A stretch of DNA of 64,000 bases, taken from contig CALVMU010000001.1 in assembly GCA_944348085.1 (NCBI GenBank), positions 1,703 to 65,702 of the forward strand. Reading direction: 5' to 3'. Below the pieces are notes generated by a model. It saw nothing but the letters and a program-made list of their open reading frames with translations. It ran no database searches and was not told where the DNA came from. Shown here one piece after another: positions 6,099 through 50,508 of this stretch. The DNA comes from an uncultured Clostridia bacterium (GTDB lineage: Bacteria > Bacillota > Clostridia > Christensenellales > UBA1242). How positions within the stretch are numbered: position 1 is the first letter of the stretch; each line of letters opens with the position of its first letter. The position numbers were made by a program, and so were the translations under genes.

Positions 6099-6113
6099 AA
6101 AATCTTTTTTCTG

Positions 6114-6296
6114 TCGATTCCACCTTAACGAAATCGAACCACCGACACAGCTCCGAAAACTACGCTCTCAGGCTACGGTTTGTCAAAGTCAAACCTCTCC
6201 GCCTTCTCTTGTTTCCTCCGCTCCCCAAAAGAACTTCCGTTCTTTCGTGGCCCCCTCTCTCAGTCCTTTGCTTTTGCCGAACTGAGCTATCAGGGC
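6114..6296 (-). repeat. tRNA-Phe-derived structured unit X1 (tRNA 5' half, ~125-nt insert, T-arm 5' part, fold-back); not a functional tRNA
   Basis: It begins with GCCCTGATAGCTCAG...AAAGGACTG, matching tRNA-Phe. The insert starts inside the anticodon loop. It ends with GTGTCGGTGGTTCGATT followed by TTAAGGTGGAATCGA, the rc of the T-loop/acceptor junction. There is no 3' acceptor strand. Confidence 0.75.
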
Positions 6297-6310
6297 ATCA
6301 ATAACATTTT

Positions 6311-6499
6311 TCGATTCATTTTTATAGTGTCATCAGAATCGAACCACCGACACTTGCTCCGAAAATTGTGCTCTAGGCTTTTTGCTTTCAGCAAATTAAG
6401 CCACTTTCGCTCATTTTCTTCGCTTCCCCAAAAGGCTTAACAGCCTTTCGTGGTCCCCCTTAGCAGTCCTTTGCTTTTGCCGACTTAAGCTATCAGGGC
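6311..6499 (-). repeat. tRNA-Phe-derived structured unit X2 (paralog of X1)
   Basis: Same architecture as X1. The long hairpin 6426-6453 differs from the X1 hairpin 6223-6250 by three compensatory base-pair changes. Confidence 0.75.
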
Positions 6500-6522
6500 G
6501 AAATTTTTGACCCTTTGGGTCT

Positions 6523-6599
6523 TGGCGACTCGGATGGGGCTCGAACCCACGACCTCCAGCGTGACAGGCTGGCGTTCTAACCAACTGAACTACCGAGCC
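6523..6599 (-). tRNA. tRNA-Asp (GTC)
   Basis: GGCTCGGTAGTTCAGTTGGTTAGAAC..CCTGTCACG..GGGTTCGAGCCCC..CCGAGTCGCCA. Confidence 0.95.
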
Positions 6600-6636
6600 A
6601 CATATCGTGACTTTGTTTCCTCGACATAGCTTGTCT

Positions 6637-6713
6637 TGGTGGGCCTTCAGGGACTCGAACCCCGGACCGACCGGTTATGAGCCGGTTGCTCTAACCAACT
6701 GAGCTAAAGGCCC
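6637..6713 (-). tRNA. tRNA with CAT anticodon (elongator Met or lysidine-dependent Ile2; not an initiator)
   Basis: The anticodon arm is ACCGG-CTCATAA-CCGGT. A G1-C72 pair is present and the three-G:C initiator signature is absent. Confidence 0.9.
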
Positions 6714-6740
6714 ATAAGAAGAGTCAAACTCATCAAGGAA

Positions 6741-6816
6741 TGGTCGGGGTGGAGAGGCTCGAACTCCCGACCTCATGGTCCCAAACCACGCGCGCTACCA
6801 ACTGCGCTACACCCCG
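6741..6816 (-). tRNA. tRNA-Pro (TGG)
   Basis: CGGGGTGTAGCGCAGTTGGTAGCGCGCGTGGTTTGGGACCATG... Confidence 0.95.
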
Positions 6817-6836
6817 ATGAATAAGTTTGCGAAGAT

Positions 6837-6865
6837 ATTTTAATATAAATAACAAAATATGTCAA
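6837..6865 (-). promoter_or_regulatory. Sigma-A promoter of the tRNA operon
   Basis: The rc reads TTGACA (6865-6860), a 17-nt spacer, then TAAAAT (6842-6837). It lies about 20 nt upstream of tRNA-Pro. Confidence 0.65.
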
Positions 6866-6965
6866 GAAAAATCGCAAAAATTTTTTATTTTTTTTAAGTT
6901 TATTCTTCCCCTTGCTTTAAGAGGAAGAAAAACTAATACATTTTATGCAAACTTACACCTCTGTG

Positions 6966-8378
6966 CTATTCAGAAAAAACATTGTCTTCGTCATCTCGTA
7001 TTCTATCGCTTACAAAATCTATGAAAAACTGCATGTCTTTTTTACTGATAGGTGTTCCTTTATGATAATTTGCTGCAACATTTATTCCCATTTTCTTTAA
7101 AGGTTTTAAAGAATGAACATGCCCAAAAAAGTTGATCATATCTGGTTTGGTTTTTGATGGAAAATGATTCATGTAAACATCAACGCCAAAAATCTTTTTA
7201 TCAAGCATCAAGCCTTCTTGATAAACATCTGCAAAACCAAGGTTTTTAAGTTTTTCTCTAAACTGCTCAAATGTCTCCCCTTTCGCAAGTTTTTCATGAT
7301 TTCCACAAATGAGGTAGATTTTTCCATTCAATCTTTTTACAACATTATAGTCGCCAAAATCGCCCAAGTGATAAACAATGTCCTTTTTCGAAACAACGCT
7401 GTTCCAATTTTTTACAAGATTTTCAGTCATTTCTTCTTTTGTTCTATAACCAAACTGACGAATTTTGTATTTTCGTGGATCATTGAAATGGGTGTCTGAA
7501 ATAAAGAAATAATTTCTTGGCGCAAAGTTGTTTGAAAGTTTGATAAGTTTTTTGGTAAAGTCTTTCCAAACGCCCTCAATTGATTTAAGGTCATAAATGT
7601 AATTGACCAGCTTGTTCATTGATGTTTTTGAAAAATCTTTCAAAAGCATGTTGACTGGCAATTGCTTTACATAACAAAAGTCAGAATTGATTAAATAAGC
7701 AATTGGAATAAGGCTATACATTCTGCAAAATTCCTGTGTAAAATCAATATTTTCAGTCAGTCTTTTATAAAGATAGTTGCCAAGTTGATTTACAGCAACA
7801 TCCTCTTTGATCTTTTCATAAGAAATTGCAAAAAGCTTGCCAATATAGCTTGGGAAAATTGTCAGCGATGCAGTTGACTTTGCCACAATTTCAAAAGCTC
7901 GTTTGTCGGCTTGATAGTTGATGTCAGTAAATTCTTGATGAAAAACATGTCTAAGTCCAAGCCACAAAACCTCCAAATTTTTGGCAATTGATGGCTTTTT
8001 CTCAATCGCCAAGGCAACATTTGTAAGAGAACCAAAACAAACGATGGTTGTTTTTGATCTGCTTGCAAGCTCGATTATCTTTTTGACCGCTGGTGAAGTT
8101 TGACTATAAAGTTCGTCACAAAAACCTTCACTGCCTTCAAGACAAATTTCATAATCCTTAAAACCAACATAACGCAAAATTCTGTGCGCTTCAAGCTCAT
8201 TTTCAAGCTGAGTGTCTCGCATGCTTAAACCTTTAAATTTGAATGGTGCAAGAGTGATTGCTTGAACCTCTATGCTAGGCTCAGCAAAAGCATAACAAAG
8301 CGCCAAATCATCTTCAACTGTATTGCCACAGTCGAGATCTATAACAATCTTTTTCGTCTTTAATTTTTCTTTTTTCAT
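6966..8378 (-). CDS. Fusion protein: inosine-uridine nucleoside hydrolase-like N-domain plus calcineurin-type metallophosphoesterase C-domain
   Basis: The N-domain has DLDCGNTVEDD (a DxDxxxDD-like motif with an insert) and FGSLTNVALAIEKKPSIAKNL (compare TGPLTNIALA). The C-domain has ISDTHF, HLGDFGD, CGNHE and GHVH metal-ligand motifs. Confidence 0.65.
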   Translation of the reverse strand: MKKEKLKTKKIVIDLDCGNTVEDDLALCYAFAEPSIEVQAITLAPFKFKGLSMRDTQLENELEAHRILRYVGFKDYEICLEGSEGFCDELYSQTSPAVKKIIELASRSKTTIVCFGSLTNVALAIEKKPSIAKNLEVLWLGLRHVFHQEFTDINYQADKRAFEIVAKSTASLTIFPSYIGKLFAISYEKIKEDVAVNQLGNYLYKRLTENIDFTQEFCRMYSLIPIAYLINSDFCYVKQLPVNMLLKDFSKTSMNKLVNYIYDLKSIEGVWKDFTKKLIKLSNNFAPRNYFFISDTHFNDPRKYKIRQFGYRTKEEMTENLVKNWNSVVSKKDIVYHLGDFGDYNVVKRLNGKIYLICGNHEKLAKGETFEQFREKLKNLGFADVYQEGLMLDKKIFGVDVYMNHFPSKTKPDMINFFGHVHSLKPLKKMGINVAANYHKGTPISKKDMQFFIDFVSDRIRDDEDNVFSE

Positions 8379-34648: not shown

Positions 34649-34723
34649 GGCCTCATGGTCAAGCGGTTAAGACACCGCCCTTTCACGGCGGAATCAGGGG
34701 TTCGATTCCCCTTGAGGCTACCA
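34649..34723 (+). tRNA. tRNA-Glu (TTC)
   Basis: GGCCTCATGGTCAAGCGGTTAAGACACCGCCCTTTCACGGCGGAATCAGGGGTTCGATTCCCCTTGAGGCTACCA. Confidence 0.95.
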
Positions 34724-34734
34724 AAAAAAATTGC

Positions 34735-34758
34735 GCGAAGAAATCTCTTCGCTTTTTT
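34735..34758 (+). terminator. Intrinsic terminator after tRNA-Glu (duplicated at 35051-35074)
   Basis: GCGAAGA-aatc-TCTTCGC followed by T6. Confidence 0.7.
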
Positions 34759-34929
34759 GTTACTTTATTTATTAAAAGGAATCGAACCCCGTCTTGTTAG
34801 GGCTCCCGAAAATCGAAAGATTTTTGGGAAGAGGAGCAAACGAGCGCAAGAGCAAGAGTTTTGATAAAAACTTTGCATAAGCGAAGTTTGTGACGAGATT
34901 CCCCTTGAGGCTACCAAAAAAAATTGCGC
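34759..34929 (+). repeat. tRNA-Glu 3' module: anti-T-arm box, conserved hairpin, and a second copy of the tRNA 3' end
   Basis: GGAATCGAACCCC (34777-34789) is the rc of the Glu T arm. The hairpin is CCCGAAAATC-GAAA-GATTTTTGGG (34804-34827). The 33-bp block gattccccttgaggctaccaaaaaaaattgcgc at 34897-34929 is identical to 34704-34736. Confidence 0.8.
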
Positions 34930-35074
34930 TTTTGCCTAGCTACTTCGTAGCGTATGGCACTGGCGCTTATTTTTTTTTGTTGTTTCGCGCCAAACGAAAA
35001 TCGCACAGCGAATTTTGCGCGAACTTGCATAAAGTTTGATAAAAAATTGAGCGAAGAAATCTCTTCGCTTTTTT
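34930..35074 (+). repeat. Second repeat block: more hairpins plus a third copy of the tRNA-Glu downstream flank and terminator
   Basis: It contains GCTAC-ttc-GTAGC and CGAAAATCGC-aca-GCGAATTTTGCG (same hairpin family). The sequence aaaaaattgAgcgaagaaatctcttcgcttttttgtt at 35041-35077 matches 34725-34761 with one mismatch. Confidence 0.7.
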
Positions 35075-45881: not shown

Positions 45882-46013
45882 ACTGCCCTACAAATAAATA
45901 TGCTGGTGTGGCGGCTCGGGGTCCCCAAAAGCTTATAAAGATTTTGGGGTGATCAGTGGCAGACGCACAGACTTAAAGTCCTGTGCGTAAACTAAATAAA
46001 AAGTTTAGTTATT
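45882..46013 (+). repeat. tRNA-Leu(UAA) 5'-half unit with a D-loop hairpin insert (132-bp unit, tandem to the real gene)
   Basis: The head actgccctacaaataaatatGCTGGTGTGGCGG is identical to 46014-46046. The insert hairpin is at 45923-45949. It is followed by ACGCACAG-ACTTAAAGTC-CTGTGCGT, which still displays TAA. There is no T arm and no 3' acceptor strand. Confidence 0.8.
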
Positions 46014-46033
46014 ACTGCCCTACAAATAAATAT

Positions 46034-46119
46034 GCTGGTGTGGCGGAATGGCAGACGCACAGGACTTAAAATCCTGAGGTGGCAACACCGTGTGGGTTCG
46101 ACTCCCACCACCAGCACCA
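46034..46119 (+). tRNA. tRNA-Leu (TAA), class II
   Basis: GCTGGTGTGGCGGAATGGCAGACGCACAGGACTTAAAATCCTGAGGTGGCAACACCGTGTGGGTTCGACTCCCACCACCAGCACCA. Confidence 0.95.
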
Positions 46120-46256
46120 AAGAAAAATCTGCGTGTGAAATGCAGTTTTTTATTCAAATCAAGTGCGCATAAAAGTGGGAGGTGACCCCTTGGGTGAGAC
46201 GGGTTCCCTGAAAATCGTCAGATTTTTAGGGTAAGGCTTCCACCACCAGCACCAAG
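46120..46256 (+). repeat. tRNA-Leu 3' module L1: weak terminator hairpin, degenerate anti-T-arm box, conserved hairpin, second tRNA 3' end
   Basis: GTGGGAGGTGACCCC (46175-46189). Hairpin CCCTGAAAATC-GTCA-GATTTTTAGGG (46206-46231). ccaccaccagcaccaa at 46240-46255 is identical to 46105-46120. L1 is about 90% identical to 50367-50508. Confidence 0.8.
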
Positions 46257-46496
46257 TATACTATACAAAAAGTCTTTTTTTGAAAAGGACTTGACACACT
46301 GCATACAGTGGCTTTGATTGATTTTTGCACTGTATACAGAGTTGGAAGTGACAACATGGCGAAAGATTGGAAGAAAAACAGAAAAAAGTGTCTTATTTAG
46401 GAAAATGAATTTTGATTTTTTTACTTAAAAATTAAATTAAATCAAAAATAATCAAAAATCAAAATAGGTGGTATAATTTTCGTTGAGGTTAAGAAA

Positions 46497-47087
46497 ATGA
46501 TTATTGAAACTGATAGATTGATTTTAAGAGAATGGAAAATGTCTGACATTGAAGATAATGTTGAAGGATTGAATAATTTTAATGTTACAAAAAACTTAAC
46601 TGTCAAGTTTCCGTATACAAAACAAGATGCAATATGCTTTATTGAAAAACATAGAAATAATGATGAAGAGAATTATTATTTTGCAATTCAATTAAAAAAT
46701 GAAAACAAGGTTATTGGTGGAACTGCTATATTAGTTGATAAACATAATATGATTGGAAAGGGTGGAATTTGGATAAATGAAAAATATTTGGGAAAAGGAT
46801 ATGGGACGGAGGTTTGGATAGCGAGAGCAAAGTTTGCTTTTGAAAATTTGTCTTTGAAAAAATTGCAGAATGGTTATTTCGAATTTAACGAAATCTCTTG
46901 GAAAATGCAAAAAAAAGTAGGCTATAAAATTGTAGGAGAAAAAACTAATTTTAGCAAAGCCCTTAATCAAAAAGTTAAAGAGATTGTAACAGAATTGACA
47001 AAAAGTGAATTCAATAAAGCATTAGAAAAAAACTTTAAACAAATAAATTTTACATTTAAAGTTTTAGAAGATAACAAGTATTCGTGA
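46497..47087 (+). CDS. GNAT N-acetyltransferase (RimJ/RimL-like)
   Basis: TDRLILREW at the N-terminus and the acetyl-CoA motif NEKYLGKGYGTE. Confidence 0.8.
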   Translation: MIIETDRLILREWKMSDIEDNVEGLNNFNVTKNLTVKFPYTKQDAICFIEKHRNNDEENYYFAIQLKNENKVIGGTAILVDKHNMIGKGGIWINEKYLGKGYGTEVWIARAKFAFENLSLKKLQNGYFEFNEISWKMQKKVGYKIVGEKTNFSKALNQKVKEIVTELTKSEFNKALEKNFKQINFTFKVLEDNKYS

Positions 47088-47157
47088 TCAATTATGTAAT
47101 GTCGCGAAATCAATGTTGAGAAATCAAAAAATCGACTTTGTTGTTAGTCGACACACA

Positions 47158-47242
47158 GAAAAATCTGCGTGTGAAATGCAGTTTTTTATTCAAATCAAAT
47201 GCGCATAAAAGAGGGAGGCAAATCTTTGGGTGAGACGGGTTG
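47158..47242 (+). repeat. L3: partial third copy of the tRNA-Leu downstream module, not next to a tRNA
   Basis: 78 of 85 nt are identical to 46121-46205, including TTGGGTGAGACGGGTT. After that it diverges into a different hairpin, GGTTGCAA..TTGCGACC. Confidence 0.75.
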
Positions 47243-47388
47243 CAACTTACAAAAATCAAGCATGTTTCTTCTTGCGACCTAGCGAATAACTTGAACTGCA
47301 ATCTTCCATTCCCCTTTATTTTTCACTTTTTGCTTAAATTGTTTGTTTTTGAAAAGAAAAAAGTGTAACATTTTTTAAAGAGGGCAAA

Positions 47389-47859
47389 ATGATTAAAAAC
47401 TTTATTCAACCACCAAAAATTATAATCAATGAAAATCTTGAACTTGTTAAGTATTATCCAAATTACAACTTGACAATAAATTGGTATAGCAGTCCAAAGC
47501 TATGCAAGCAAGTCGATGGCAAAGAAGAGGCTTACAGCAAAGAAAGACTCAAAAACATGTATAAATTTTTGTGCAAAAATGGAGAATGTTATTATATCAA
47601 ATACAAGGACAATGGAAAATGGATGCTTGTTGGAGACATTTCGCTATATCTCGGGCAAATTGCAATAGTTATCGCACAGCAGTGGCAAAACAAGCATATT
47701 GGAAGAGAATGTGTGAAAGCTTTGCTTAAAAGAGCCAAACAAGTTGGTTATACAGAAATTAAAGCAAACATTTTTTCTTTCAATAGCCAAAGCAAAAACA
47801 TGTTTCAAGCAGTTGGATTTAAACAAGTTTCAAATGAAGAATATATTTACAAATTATGA
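47389..47859 (+). CDS. GNAT N-acetyltransferase
   Basis: The QQWQNKHIGRECVKALL acetyl-CoA-binding pattern (Q/R-x-x-G-x-G/A-like) and a 156-aa size. Confidence 0.7.
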   Translation: MIKNFIQPPKIIINENLELVKYYPNYNLTINWYSSPKLCKQVDGKEEAYSKERLKNMYKFLCKNGECYYIKYKDNGKWMLVGDISLYLGQIAIVIAQQWQNKHIGRECVKALLKRAKQVGYTEIKANIFSFNSQSKNMFQAVGFKQVSNEEYIYKL

Positions 47860-47994
47860 TAAACTAAAAAAGACTAGCTACGCGCTAGTCATTTTTATAT
47901 TTTAAATATTTTTCAAAATCAATAAAGTAACAAATTTAACAAATATAATAAAAAAAATCAAACACTAAAAGTTTGATAATTTTAAAAAGTCTTT

Positions 47995-48387
47995 CTATGC
48001 CATCTGATTTCTATAAATCATTGCGCGACATTCAAGTTTCAATCTTTCAGCAAGTGAGCAGATAACTTGTTTAGCAGATATCGTTTCAACATTTTGACAG
48101 CCAAACAAATTTTCGCAAGCGGATTGATTTAATCCTCTTTTACAAGCTTCACACATGGTCTTTAGCCGTCTTTCAATTTGACTTACTGAAATATTATAGT
48201 TTTCAGCTAGCGCAGGATATAGTTTTTTGTTCATATTAAGCTTTTTTGAAGCATCCAAAGCAATCTGCATCACAACATCTTTTAAAAGACTATAACCTTT
48301 TGCATTTGGAAGCACTCTGATTTTCATAAGCATCAAACTGAGCCTTTCTTCAATAAAAACTCTTTTCTTCTCATCGACTTCCCCCAT
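47995..48387 (-). CDS. Stand-alone Spo0A C-terminal-domain-like DNA-binding protein (no receiver domain)
   Basis: NAKGYSLLKDVV...NKKLYPALAENYNISVSQIERRLKTMCEA parallels the Spo0A effector domain (KGYxYLreAI...KeLYP.IA..f.tT.S.VERaIRhaIe). GGAGGTG SD. Confidence 0.65.
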   Translation of the reverse strand: MGEVDEKKRVFIEERLSLMLMKIRVLPNAKGYSLLKDVVMQIALDASKKLNMNKKLYPALAENYNISVSQIERRLKTMCEACKRGLNQSACENLFGCQNVETISAKQVICSLAERLKLECRAMIYRNQMA

Positions 48388-49862: not shown

Positions 49863-49990
49863 TAAAGAAACCTTTGCCCAAATTGCTAAAACAGAATGCC
49901 CCACCCTTTGACTTAACATTCCAAAATATTTACATGTTTTGCGATAAAACACAAACAAAAATCAGGTGCGCAAAATTGATAACTTGATTT

Positions 49991-50124
49991 CTACTGCCCT
50001 ACAATTTAATATGCTGGTGTGGCGGCTCGGGGTCCCCAAAAACTTATAAAGATTTTGGGGTGATCAGTGGCAGACCGACGGCTCAAGAGTCCGTCGCGAA
50101 AACGAAATTGACTTACTTAGTTTT
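49991..50124 (+). repeat. tRNA-Leu(CAA) 5'-half unit, copy 1 (134 bp)
   Basis: Head ctactgccctacaatttaatatGCTGGTGTGGCGG, D-loop insert hairpin at 50034-50060, anticodon-like hairpin CGACGG-CTCAAGAGT-CCGTCG, and tail hairpin GAAAAC..GTTTTC. Confidence 0.8.
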
Positions 50125-50258
50125 CTACTGCCCTACAATTTTATATGCTGGTGTGGCGGTTCGGGGTCCCCAAAAGCTTATAAAGGTTTTGGGGTGATCA
50201 GTGGCAGACCGACGGCTCAAGAGTCCGTCGCGAAAACGAAATTGACTTACTTAGTTTT
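50125..50258 (+). repeat. tRNA-Leu(CAA) 5'-half unit, copy 2 (134 bp)
   Basis: Near-identical to copy 1, with a handful of substitutions. Its hairpin is at 50168-50194. Confidence 0.8.
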
Positions 50259-50280
50259 CTACTGCCCTACAATTTTATAT

Positions 50281-50366
50281 GCTGGTGTGGCGGAATGGCA
50301 GACGCGACGGACTCAAAATCCGTTGAGGGCAACTTCATGTGGGTTCGACTCCCACCACCAGCACCA
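50281..50366 (+). tRNA. tRNA-Leu (CAA), class II
   Basis: GCTGGTGTGGCGGAATGGCAGACGCGACGGACTCAAAATCCGTTGAGGGCAACTTCATGTGGGTTCGACTCCCACCACCAGCACCA. Confidence 0.95.
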
Positions 50367-50508
50367 AGAAAAAATCTGCGTGTAAAATGCAGTTTTTTTA
50401 TTTAAATCAAATGCACATAAAATGTGGGAGTCGAACCCTTGGGTGAGACGGGTTCCCTGAAAATCGCCAGATTTTTAGGGTAAGGCTTCCACCACCAGCA
50501 CCAAGAAA
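50367..50508 (+). repeat. tRNA-Leu 3' module L2: exact anti-T-arm box, conserved hairpins, second tRNA 3' end
   Basis: GTGGGAGTCGAACCC (50424-50438) is the rc of the T arm GGGTTCGACTCCCAC. The hairpin is at 50455-50480. The 20-bp block ccaccaccagcaccaagaaa at 50489-50508 is identical to 50352-50371. Confidence 0.85.

Follow-up and report, generated by a model that had tools for sequence, protein, structure and literature searches.

We describe here a family of short, strand-specific hairpins in a 64-kb stretch of DNA from an uncultured Clostridia bacterium (GenBank assembly GCA_944348085.1, contig CALVMU010000001.1, positions 1,703 to 65,702 of the forward strand), which we refer to as the window and number from its first nucleotide; every such hairpin in the window occupies a loop within a partial, non-functional copy of the tRNA gene next to it. 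The hairpin alone (HP) is ~27 nucleotides (nt) long with a 5' flank, GGGK, that occurs as GGGT, GGGG or GGGC, and together with a second conserved domain it forms a ~105-nt module that we call M. The family is previously uncatalogued. In the reading that we prefer, and to which we give about even credence, HP/M is a proliferating, strand-specific structured repeat residing in tRNA fragments that were made by miniature tRNA-targeting insertions.

A first-pass annotation of the window had listed nine hairpins of this family and had noted that they occur only next to tRNA-derived sequence. Eight of the nine are genuine, correctly placed and far above chance expectation, whereas the ninth (35000-35027) is another recurrent hairpin (34986-35021; CGCGCCAAACG, a stem-loop and GCGCGA(C/A)CUU), which recurs in L029 and in the element A described below (L118/L119; L-numbers denote loci or contigs outside the window that were used for comparison). 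The strict pattern TCCC(N)GAAAATC-N4-GATTTTT(N)GGG matched the window three times (34804-34828, 46205-46231 and 50454-50480), as did CCCCAAAA-N11-TTTTGGGG (45923-45949, 50034-50060 and 50168-50194), with 0 matches to either pattern in 100 shuffles of the window. The two Phe-type hairpins (6223-6250 and 6426-6453) read CCACGAAAG..CUUUUGGGG on the minus, tRNA-sense strand, and their inner pairs differ and compensate (GAAC/GUUC vs. GGCU/AGCC); grouping this variant with the others is supported by a covariance model of the longer module, which recognises both units (49.6 and 32.1 bits). A generic CCC…GGG hairpin scan of the 64 kb revealed only one unrelated hairpin elsewhere. Exclusive proximity to tRNA-derived sequence is true inside the window, though confounded there, and outside it holds for one subtype only. 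The motif is indeed absent from the other intergenic regions of the window, but this is weak as evidence because six of the seven gaps >200 nt between long open reading frames (ORFs) hold or flank tRNA genes, of which the window has 11 (ARAGORN and Rfam); the seventh (47088-47388) contains a truncated unit remnant.

The partial tRNA copies, hereafter units, differ in the loop that accommodates the hairpin (Table 1): the T loop in units 3' of the tRNA-Glu, tRNA-Leu(UAA) and tRNA-Leu(CAA) genes, the D loop in units 5' of both Leu genes, and, in two pseudo-Phe units, the anticodon loop. The tRNA 3' half is missing from the 5' units, the 5' half from the 3' units and the 3' acceptor strand from the Phe units; none of the units was called as a tRNA by ARAGORN or the Rfam tRNA model, and intact tRNA genes stand beside them. 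The 3' units, placed beyond the tRNA's own terminator, run in the order anti-T box (the reverse complement of the T arm), small stem, HP and direct copy of the tRNA 3' end, the last spanning 18 nt (positions 59-76) for Leu (CTTCCACCACCAGCACCA in the Leu-UAA unit) and 33 nt including trailer for Glu. The 5' units, of which there is one before Leu-UAA and a tandem pair before Leu-CAA, extend from a copy of the upstream region across the 5' half of the tRNA as far as the anticodon arm; in each, a 43-nt insert with a hairpin takes the place of 3 nt of the D loop (insert 45915-45957 with the hairpin at 45923-45949 in the Leu-UAA unit). Each pseudo-Phe unit comprises the tRNA 5' part to the anticodon loop, an M-type module, the T-arm 5' half and loop and a short anti-T-loop box, with ~115 nt standing in place of the anticodon-arm 3' half. 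GC skew is nearly uniform in the window, yet the HP strand is the tRNA strand on both DNA strands.

The modular organisation proposed in the first-pass annotation is supported. The tRNA-derived parts follow the neighbouring tRNA for seven amino-acid identities (Leu, Glu, Met, Arg, Thr, Ser and Phe). The annotation's observation that the anti-T box changes with the tRNA also holds: the Glu and Leu-CAA boxes (the latter GTGGGAGTCGAACCC) are exact reverse complements of their T arms, and the Leu-UAA copy has diverged from the tRNA complement with its internal pairing kept. In an alignment, 28 short 3' units for different tRNAs follow one plan, in which nucleotide 57 of the tail (G or A) is that of the local tRNA and A58 is changed to G in ~24 of the 28 (3' units in L003-L115 and window positions 46235-46236 and 50484-50485), while the anti-T box keeps the U opposite 58, giving a perfect match to the real tRNA and a U.G pair within the unit. 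The predicted fold of 50422-50502 is a three-way junction (-32.5 kcal/mol, z = -3.6). As a separate observation, both tRNA-Leu genes and every 5' unit are immediately preceded by the motif ACTGCCCTACAAW and then an AT-rich stretch (45883-45904, 46015-46033, 49993-50013, 50127-50147 and 50261-50280); at 49976-50005 the motif forms a promoter-like TTGATA-18-TACAAT, and the internal copies have a 20-nt spacer.

The earlier suggestion of a structured domain is backed by covariation in M. Fourteen examples align as GGGK-HP-WARAGGAR-helix (CAAAC/GUUUG)-GAGCG-variable hairpin-GAGCGUAG-…UGACG, and 95.7% of the cells were paired in this alignment, compared to 35-47% when the partners were slid by 1-3 columns. 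Both-sided, compensatory changes (for example, CAAAC/GUUUG to AAGGC/GCCUU) occurred in 11 of 23 pairs vs. 5.7 ± 1.5 in shuffles, and the single-stranded joiners AGGAG, GAGCG, GAGCGUAG and UGACG were invariant. At three positions a G.U pair is conserved that would become A.C on the opposite strand, indicating that the fold has been selected on the tRNA-sense strand as a single strand, RNA or single-stranded DNA (ssDNA), and not as a duplex cruciform. The covariance model R1 gave ~40 near-full-length matches (about 100-110 nt, 40-113 bits) in sampled loci, with up to four high-scoring copies within one 8-kb block and with 40-42 bits in several Bacteroidales loci; the covariance-model match to M of the Glu unit (34791-34895) scored 95.6 bits. 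Against Rfam 15 at gathering score only tRNAs matched in the window, and 40 related loci yielded tRNAs, one RNase P RNA and one L10 leader, M itself remaining unmatched; the units searched at an E-value up to 5 returned nothing save chance-level permuted-tmRNA matches (E ~3).

When 185,579 species genomes were scanned with the exact pattern, at least 136 HPs turned up, spread over at least 116 loci, compared to ~0.3 expected by chance in our own calculation. The same kind of scan of 2.9 million viral contigs gave 0 matches and therefore no sign of phage origin. Metagenome-assembled genomes (MAGs) account for nearly all of the matches listed; they belong either to uncultured Clostridia of the gut or rumen or to Bacteroidales, Paludibacteraceae among them. 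Several of the Clostridia loci share synteny with the window, the DNA being 70-76% identical. Such a scan had been proposed as the way to find out whether the tRNA linkage is an artefact of this window, and its outcome was mixed: the family overall is not tRNA-bound, while one branch clearly is. Among the matches listed, the Clostridia subtype UCCCUGAAAAUC-N4-GAUUUUUAGGG (UA) was tRNA-linked in 41 of 51 cases, 33 of them through a called tRNA no more than 400 nt away and 8 through the 3'-unit signature; the CCCC-G…U-GGGG subtype was linked in only 11 of 51, and linkage was hardly ever seen for the Bacteroidales copies. Of the listed Clostridia hairpins that have a tRNA within 400 nt, 40 of 40 lay on the tRNA strand (34 downstream, 6 upstream), and the tRNAs to which the listed Clostridia hairpins are linked were Leu (five anticodons), Met, Glu, Arg, Ser and Thr. 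HP loops in Clostridia are mostly GNNA or GNRA.

The same 27-nt HP sequence is found in two phyla, and both it and the longer module occupy hairpin loops unrelated to tRNA in Clostridia and in Bacteroidales, which contradicts the supposed restriction to tRNA-derived sequence. A Paludibacteraceae MAG (L019:1804-2237, minus strand) has an RNase P RNA gene with HP and AGAGCGGAG in its P12 region, antisense; with this insert the gene scores 151.6 bits against the bacterial class A model. In L007, L037 and L084, two to four hairpins stand in tandem inside a single loop. A dispersed ~250-nt repeat of Paludibacteraceae MAGs (…ACTTAAGATTAAGCGCACGAG…AAGATTTATAAGATTTCT…) contains M in one loop (L016, L020, L024, L031, L044, L081, L089 and L095), and of the tandem copies of this repeat in L016 the first has M and the second does not. 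Likewise, M is present in L038/L108 and missing from the homologous repeat in L047/L040, the insert measuring 50 nt with AAGC on both sides. The module is thus gained or lost independently of the repeat that hosts it.

We compared the window with four same-species contigs from other samples, found by an identical DegV protein, and these provide direct support for the earlier notion of a tRNA-targeting miniature element. A ~245-nt non-coding element, A, lies at tRNA-Leu-UAA in L118 and at tRNA-Leu-CAA in L119 (~99% identical) and is absent at both tRNA-Leu genes in the window, which thus represent empty sites. Element A begins immediately behind the tRNA CCA, where it has a terminator of its own, and ends in …CCACTGGGTTCG-HP-TAAGG-CTTCCACCACCAGCACCA, so that it is bounded by the tRNA CCA end and the 18-nt repeat; it is without most of the anti-T box, and its start is conserved after unit tails in other species (L009, L012 and L086). 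The tRNA retains C61 and the displaced copy has T61; therefore the repeat is carried by element A, and any crossover lies within the last ~15 nt. Strains also differ in the units themselves and in what follows them. L117 has a single 5' unit at Leu-CAA vs. two in the window. In L118, a different 3' unit follows Leu-CAA and is succeeded by an ORF of 223 amino acids (aa) and a further anti-T remnant, and at Leu-UAA an unrelated 176-aa ORF takes the place of window 46120-47240 (a GNAT gene with the truncated unit 47154-47241 at the end). Different 3' units and cassettes are thus found at one locus in different strains.

No mobile-element enzyme was found in the window (Pfam, 40 of 49 long ORFs), and a crude motif scan of 930 ORFs neighbouring the hairpins revealed no tyrosine, serine or HUH recombinase motifs. 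When these 930 ORFs, all within 2.5 kb of hairpins, were clustered, only syntenic housekeeping genes and a dockerin-domain artefact emerged, with no conserved neighbour gene; recombinases or transposases, such as the RAYT/TnpA-like enzymes or integrases for which a search had been suggested, were not recurrent near hairpins across the at least 116 loci. A 4-kb island in L011, one of a family of ~4.3-kb islands, separates tRNA-Leu(CAG) from its 3' unit and encodes a 540-aa large serine recombinase (L011:3237-4859, plus strand; Resolvase, Recombinase and Zn_ribbon_recom domains), the ORF of which runs into the tRNA, antisense to it. A scan with this recombinase found 19 metagenome loci, with relatives in L131-L145, and a Leu or Ser tRNA gene abuts the recombinase-gene 3' end in 7 of the 7 loci with an ARAGORN-called tRNA (57-98% protein identity). 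The islands are sited at the 3' end of type-II tRNA genes (Leu-CAG, Leu-AAG, Ser-GCU and Ser-UGA), and their far end is tRNA-3'-end-like (…GGTTCGGATACTTTATCACTTGTCGCACCA); the L011 island has its own end (…TTGTCGCACCA) and a 6-7-nt core. Recombinases that are 96-98% identical occur at tRNA-Leu genes with 3' ends differing at many positions. Behind the island, and again behind the unit farther out, comes the trailer native to the host, and the distal units differ by host and match each host's tRNA. The island is therefore a separate element that inserted between the tRNA and a pre-existing unit. We considered the L011 recombinase as the unit-making enzyme and rejected it, given its own tRNA-like end and core and adjoining units that are host-specific and, in L134 and L136, HP-less. 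The distal units of L134 and L136 consist of an anti-T box and an 18-nt tail without HP; the islands mark these tRNA ends as hot spots of integration and show that the anti-T and tail architecture needs no HP. HP thus seems to reside in the unit without having made it, and nothing indicates that the hairpin recruits or copies tRNA sequence, as had been proposed.

In the reading that we prefer, HP/M would lodge in the loops of pre-existing dispensable hairpins, which at tRNA loci are partial tRNA copies: a T arm paired with an inverted anti-T copy, a D arm or an anticodon arm. The partial copies, in turn, would be the duplicated target left by miniature non-autonomous elements and small gene cassettes integrating at the tRNA gene, each integration leaving an intact tRNA beside a displaced fragment and repeated events piling up in tandem. 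Movement would occur by conservative site-specific recombination within the 15-18-nt tRNA 3'-end identity, catalysed by a recombinase encoded elsewhere and acting in trans, and HP/M itself would spread as a single-stranded fold (ssDNA or RNA) with no function for the cell. These points of mechanism and function are inferred, whereas the data establish the repeat family with its compensated, strand-specific fold, the direct repeats of tRNA ends, the intact tRNA beside each unit, the differences in presence and copy number among strains and the variable occurrence of the module inside other repeats. Excision of element A, or its circle junction, would be expected to read …HP-TAAGGCTTCCACCACCAGCACCA joined to TCGGCGAAAACGG….

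Several observations weigh against this reading. A recombinase or transposase was found neither in the window (40 of 49 ORFs) nor recurrently near hairpins (at least 116 loci), the one recombinase island that came to light (in L011 and relatives) has a 6-7-nt core of its own, and neither the units nor element A have terminal inverted repeats or fixed-length target duplications. Some features look selected, which is unexpected for junk: the GNNA-rich tetraloops, the invariant joining nucleotides, the near-universal A58-to-G change, with its U.G junction pair in ~24 of 28 short units, and the persistence of units beside the same tRNA genes in species whose neighbouring DNA is only 70-76% identical. 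Moreover, 5'-side partial copies that include the promoter are unusual for integrase scars, random loop insertion does not explain the perfect tRNA co-orientation, and the spread of element A between loci could stem from homologous recombination between similar Leu loci.

That the hairpins are chance palindromes or ordinary intrinsic terminators of the tRNA genes we regard as excluded: the A/U-rich stems, G/C clamps, intergenic position and nearness to terminators would suit such a view, but the shuffles gave 0 matches, >130 near-identical copies exist in other genomes, no U tract follows the hairpins, separate genuine terminators stand directly after each tRNA, and the hairpins lie inside tRNA-derived sequence. 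The main rival, possible if rather doubtful, is that HP/M is a functional RNA domain, protein-binding or self-associating for example, which is carried on tRNA-like or terminator-like scaffolds and transcribed with or beside tRNA genes. The units would then be small RNAs or processing or regulatory spacers and the apparent mobility a matter of recombination among similar copies. The strong covariation and the wobble pairs that work on the tRNA-sense strand only speak for an RNA domain, as do the mostly GNNA/GNRA loops of Clostridia, the invariant joiners, the conserved U.G junction pair, an orientation that is always that of the tRNA, the occupation of the same loci across species, the conservation of the 27-nt sequence across two phyla and tandem hairpin arrays that resemble protein-sponge RNAs; in addition, the Phe units stand in a tRNA cluster with no terminator-like site by eye (not scanned) from Asp to Phe, and their transcription is probable. 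On the other hand, the 3' units sit beyond good intrinsic terminators without a consistent promoter, copies number in the dozens per genome and are mutually nested and strain-variable, one is antisense in an RNase P RNA gene, the module is now present and now absent within other repeats, and there is no Rfam match even at an E-value up to 5 and no conserved neighbour protein gene.

A further alternative, which we think unlikely, is that HP, anti-T box and tRNA-3'-end tail together form a working attachment arm or nucleic-acid guide of tRNA-targeting elements, HP being needed for targeting; a folded single strand would rebuild the T-arm duplex, as in integron attC or CTX phage attP, or would pair with both target strands, as in the IS110 bridge RNA. 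In its favour are the constant order of anti-T box, small stem, HP, U.G pair and 18-nt tail across tRNA identities, an anti-T box that is the exact complement of the real tRNA (U opposite A58) despite its G58 partner in the unit, the predicted three-way junction (z = -3.6), a strand-specific fold like that of folded-ssDNA recombination sites, and the fact that HP travels with element A. The HP-less anti-T and tail units of L134 and L136 count against it, however, as do the abundance of HP/M away from tRNAs, the near lack of an anti-T box in element A, which yet seems recently mobile, the drift of the window Leu-UAA box from the tRNA complement with its internal pairing kept, and the failure to find integron-type core sites or a nearby integrase, IS110-type or other recombinase. 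We consider it quite improbable, and offer only as speculation, that the units are programmable targeting arms in which a folded RNA or ssDNA, with the antisense T arm and the sense tRNA 3' end around an HP/M scaffold, guides a trans-acting recombinase; specificity would be set by base pairing and switched by swapping the tRNA boxes, and M, no less speculatively, would be a cross-phylum scaffold recognised by the enzyme. Other ideas were dropped: a snap-back or retro-copy origin, given that the repeats extend past the mature CCA; a group I intron, the inserts (27-115 nt) being too small and without a model match; and split tRNA halves, a CRISPR-like array and a K-turn.

Among known systems, integrases leave att duplications at tRNA genes, and the tycheposons of Prochlorococcus form tandem arrays with degenerate remnants at tRNA-anchored islands, and partial tRNA repeats, stacked insertions and strain-variable cargo beside tRNA genes are a known signature of integrase elements (bioRxiv 10.1101/2020.12.28.424599). 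As in tRNA-targeting integrative elements, here an intact tRNA stands before an element delimited by a direct repeat of its 3' end, insertions stack at the tRNA, strain variability is greatest beside it, and small cargo genes lie between the repeats. Cis-mobilizable elements without an integrase are a further example of elements that target tRNA genes. By the measures applied to integrase elements, the bounding repeats (18 nt for Leu, 33 nt for Glu) and the presence/absence polymorphism are found in our material and an integrase gene is not. Unlike integrase elements, the elements here measure 130-350 nt and have no integrase (the units, at 80-350 nt, have no ORF), and the displaced tRNA fragment comes after an inverted T-arm copy and is split by a conserved hairpin or module. 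Copies on the 5' side (promoter, D-loop insert) and anticodon-loop versions occur as well, none of which is described for tycheposon-type elements (bioRxiv 10.1101/2020.12.28.424599). The units differ from miniature inverted-repeat transposable elements in that the ends of units and of element A are dissimilar and the repeats are 12-33 nt of tRNA or trailer.

Repetitive extragenic palindromic (REP) sequences, the bacterial interspersed mosaic elements (BIMEs) built of them with their RAYT enzymes, and the ends of IS200/IS605 are short imperfect palindromes with a strand-specific fold and a conserved 5' flank (GTAG in REP). HP shares with them the imperfect palindrome made strand-specific by conserved mismatches, the short 5' flank, the many copies, the tandem clusters and the lack of inverted ends and target duplications. 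It differs from REP in its flank (GGGK, not GTAG), in copies that form direct and not inverted pairs, in lying inside the loops of other hairpins and in having one subtype tied to tRNA fragments; no RAYT/TnpA or HUH/Y1 gene was seen in the crude motif scan of 930 ORFs near hairpins or by Pfam in 40 of 49 window ORFs. Integron attC and CTX phage attP are folded single-strand recombination sites. Conservation of structure more than of sequence outside a core, a strand-specific fold, conserved non-Watson-Crick positions, a variable or branched terminal structure and adjoining single-gene cassettes are common to these sites and to HP/M. Unlike attC, HP units have no R''/R' cores (RYYYAAC/GTTRRRY) by alignment inspection and a stem built of tRNA sequence, and no intI or Xer link was found, ORFs near hairpins showing no tyrosine-recombinase motif in the crude scan. 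In the comparison with the IS110 bridge RNA, antisense (anti-T) and sense (tail) segments flank the hairpins; the two segments pair together, and there is no neighbouring recombinase gene.

Genes for RNAs and for proteins can both receive Rickettsia palindromic elements and comparable small repeats. HP/M resembles these repeats as a small structured repeat that is tolerated in a structural RNA gene (RNase P P12, L019) and in other elements, and differs in its unrelated sequence and structure, its other host phylum and its strong tie to tRNA-derived hairpins. ROOL and GOLLD RNAs are found near tRNAs, tmRNA is tRNA-like, and bacterial Y RNAs have a tRNA-like domain; like these, the units are structured non-coding sequence beside or mimicking tRNA, in rumen and gut Clostridia, and unlike them they have no Rfam match and consist of modules that are much smaller, multi-copy and nested. 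A search of Rfam and the literature returned no description that combines a two-phylum ~105-nt module, hairpin-loop nesting, an anti-T and tail architecture, and 5'-side and anticodon-loop versions.

If our interpretation is true, a lineage of uncultured gut and rumen Clostridia and, in another form, Bacteroidales would carry an undescribed family of structured mini-repeats that settle in hairpin loops and mark sites at tRNA genes where insertion is very active and integrase-less, which would help explain assembly breaks at tRNA loci and the swapping of small cargo genes between strains. The strong covariation, conserved wobbles and near-identical sequence in two phyla point to a specific partner of the ~105-nt module, and the constant antisense and sense target copies around it raise the possibility of structure- or base-pairing-guided targeting of tRNA genes. 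In annotation, the units may also give rise to tRNA pseudogene fragments and to false intergenic "ncRNA" calls.

Table 1. Positions of tRNA genes, tRNA-derived units and associated hairpins in the window.
Feature	Position	Strand	Basis
tRNA-Glu(UUC), intact; T arm and 3' end copied downstream	34649..34723	+	ARAGORN; Rfam tRNA, 67 bits
Glu 3' unit, anti-T box GGAATCGAACCCC, exact reverse complement of tRNA-Glu T arm (34699-34711)	34778..34790	+	Sequence; pairs with 34897-34902 in predicted fold
Glu unit, HP: UCCCGAAAAUC-GAAA-GAUUUUUGGGA, G.U wobble on this strand only	34804..34829	+	Sequence and pattern
Glu unit, second domain of M: AGAGGAGCAAACGAGCG, variable hairpin, AGCGAAGUUUGUGACG	34830..34895	+	Alignment and covariation
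Direct repeat of tRNA-Glu 3' end and 14 nt of trailer; original copy 34704-34736	34897..34929	+	Sequence
Two further recurrent hairpin modules, (a) 34926-34979 and (b) 34986-35021, neither a member of HP	34926..35021	+	Sequence; homologues in L029 and element A
5' unit of tRNA-Leu(UAA), 132-nt repeat; upstream region and tRNA 5' half	45883..46014	+	Sequence comparison
tRNA-Leu(UAA), then terminator 46129-46145	46034..46119	+	ARAGORN, Rfam
3' unit of tRNA-Leu(UAA): diverged anti-T box 46175-46189, small stem, HP 46205-46232, tail 46237-46254	46175..46254	+	Sequence, fold, pattern
Cut-down copy of terminator and anti-T part of 3' unit; bounds strain-variable segment with GNAT gene (46497-47087)	47154..47241	+	Strain comparison
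Two tandem 5' units of tRNA-Leu(CAA), period 134 nt; D-loop hairpins 50034-50060 and 50168-50194	49993..50260	+	Sequence, pattern
tRNA-Leu(CAA), then terminator 50376-50392	50281..50366	+	ARAGORN, Rfam
3' unit of tRNA-Leu(CAA): anti-T box 50424-50438, small stem, HP 50454-50481, 18-nt tail 50486-50503	50424..50503	+	Sequence, fold, pattern
Two tandem pseudo-tRNA-Phe units between tRNA-Asp and tRNA-Phe	6099..6500	-	Sequence; covariance-model matches 6357-6466 (49.6 bits) and 6151-6262 (32.1 bits)

Downstream of the Glu unit, module (a), a long hairpin resembling a terminator, reads GCGCUUUUGCCUAG…GGCACUGGCGC and then a U run, and both modules (a) and (b) recur in L029 and element A, at times with HP/M inside their loops. 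The Glu and Phe loci in other strains showed no variation or were represented only by contigs ending in the tRNA cluster. Contigs of six assemblies with an identical neighbour gene (L125-L130, corresponding to window ~6400-6966) stop <600 nt on, inside that cluster; apparently, repeat-rich tRNA loci break short-read assemblies.

Beyond the units, the stretch after tRNA-Leu-UAA (window 46260-47990) is strain-variable and holds two GNAT genes in the window (46497-47087 and 47389-47859), and L119 and L120 have an extra gene for a 394-aa NT5C and GNAT protein at 47919-47924. The pattern after Leu-UAA is cassette-like, with no common recombination site seen at the 47919-47924 junction. At tRNA-Leu-CAA, a PHP-domain gene (290 aa in L119, 263 aa in L120) lies in the loop of the tRNA terminator (L119:4760-6210 and L120:4815 onward, corresponding to window ~50386), and in L119, where both junctions are present, the insertion lies between inverted repeats that share a perfect 15-bp core, AACTTTGAAACTAGC. 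It represents a second, unrelated kind of hairpin-loop insertion.

The window has a G+C content of ~38%, and its ORFs include sporulation and housekeeping genes (Pfam, 40 of 49 long ORFs), so we take it to be part of the chromosome of a spore-forming member of the Clostridia; identical copies of its proteins were found in gut metagenome assemblies only, including those of the BRZ_* and ONAT22-1 sample series. A stand-alone 130-aa ORF (47995-48387, minus strand), whose sole match is the Spo0A C-terminal DNA-binding domain, without a receiver domain, is kept in all strains examined.

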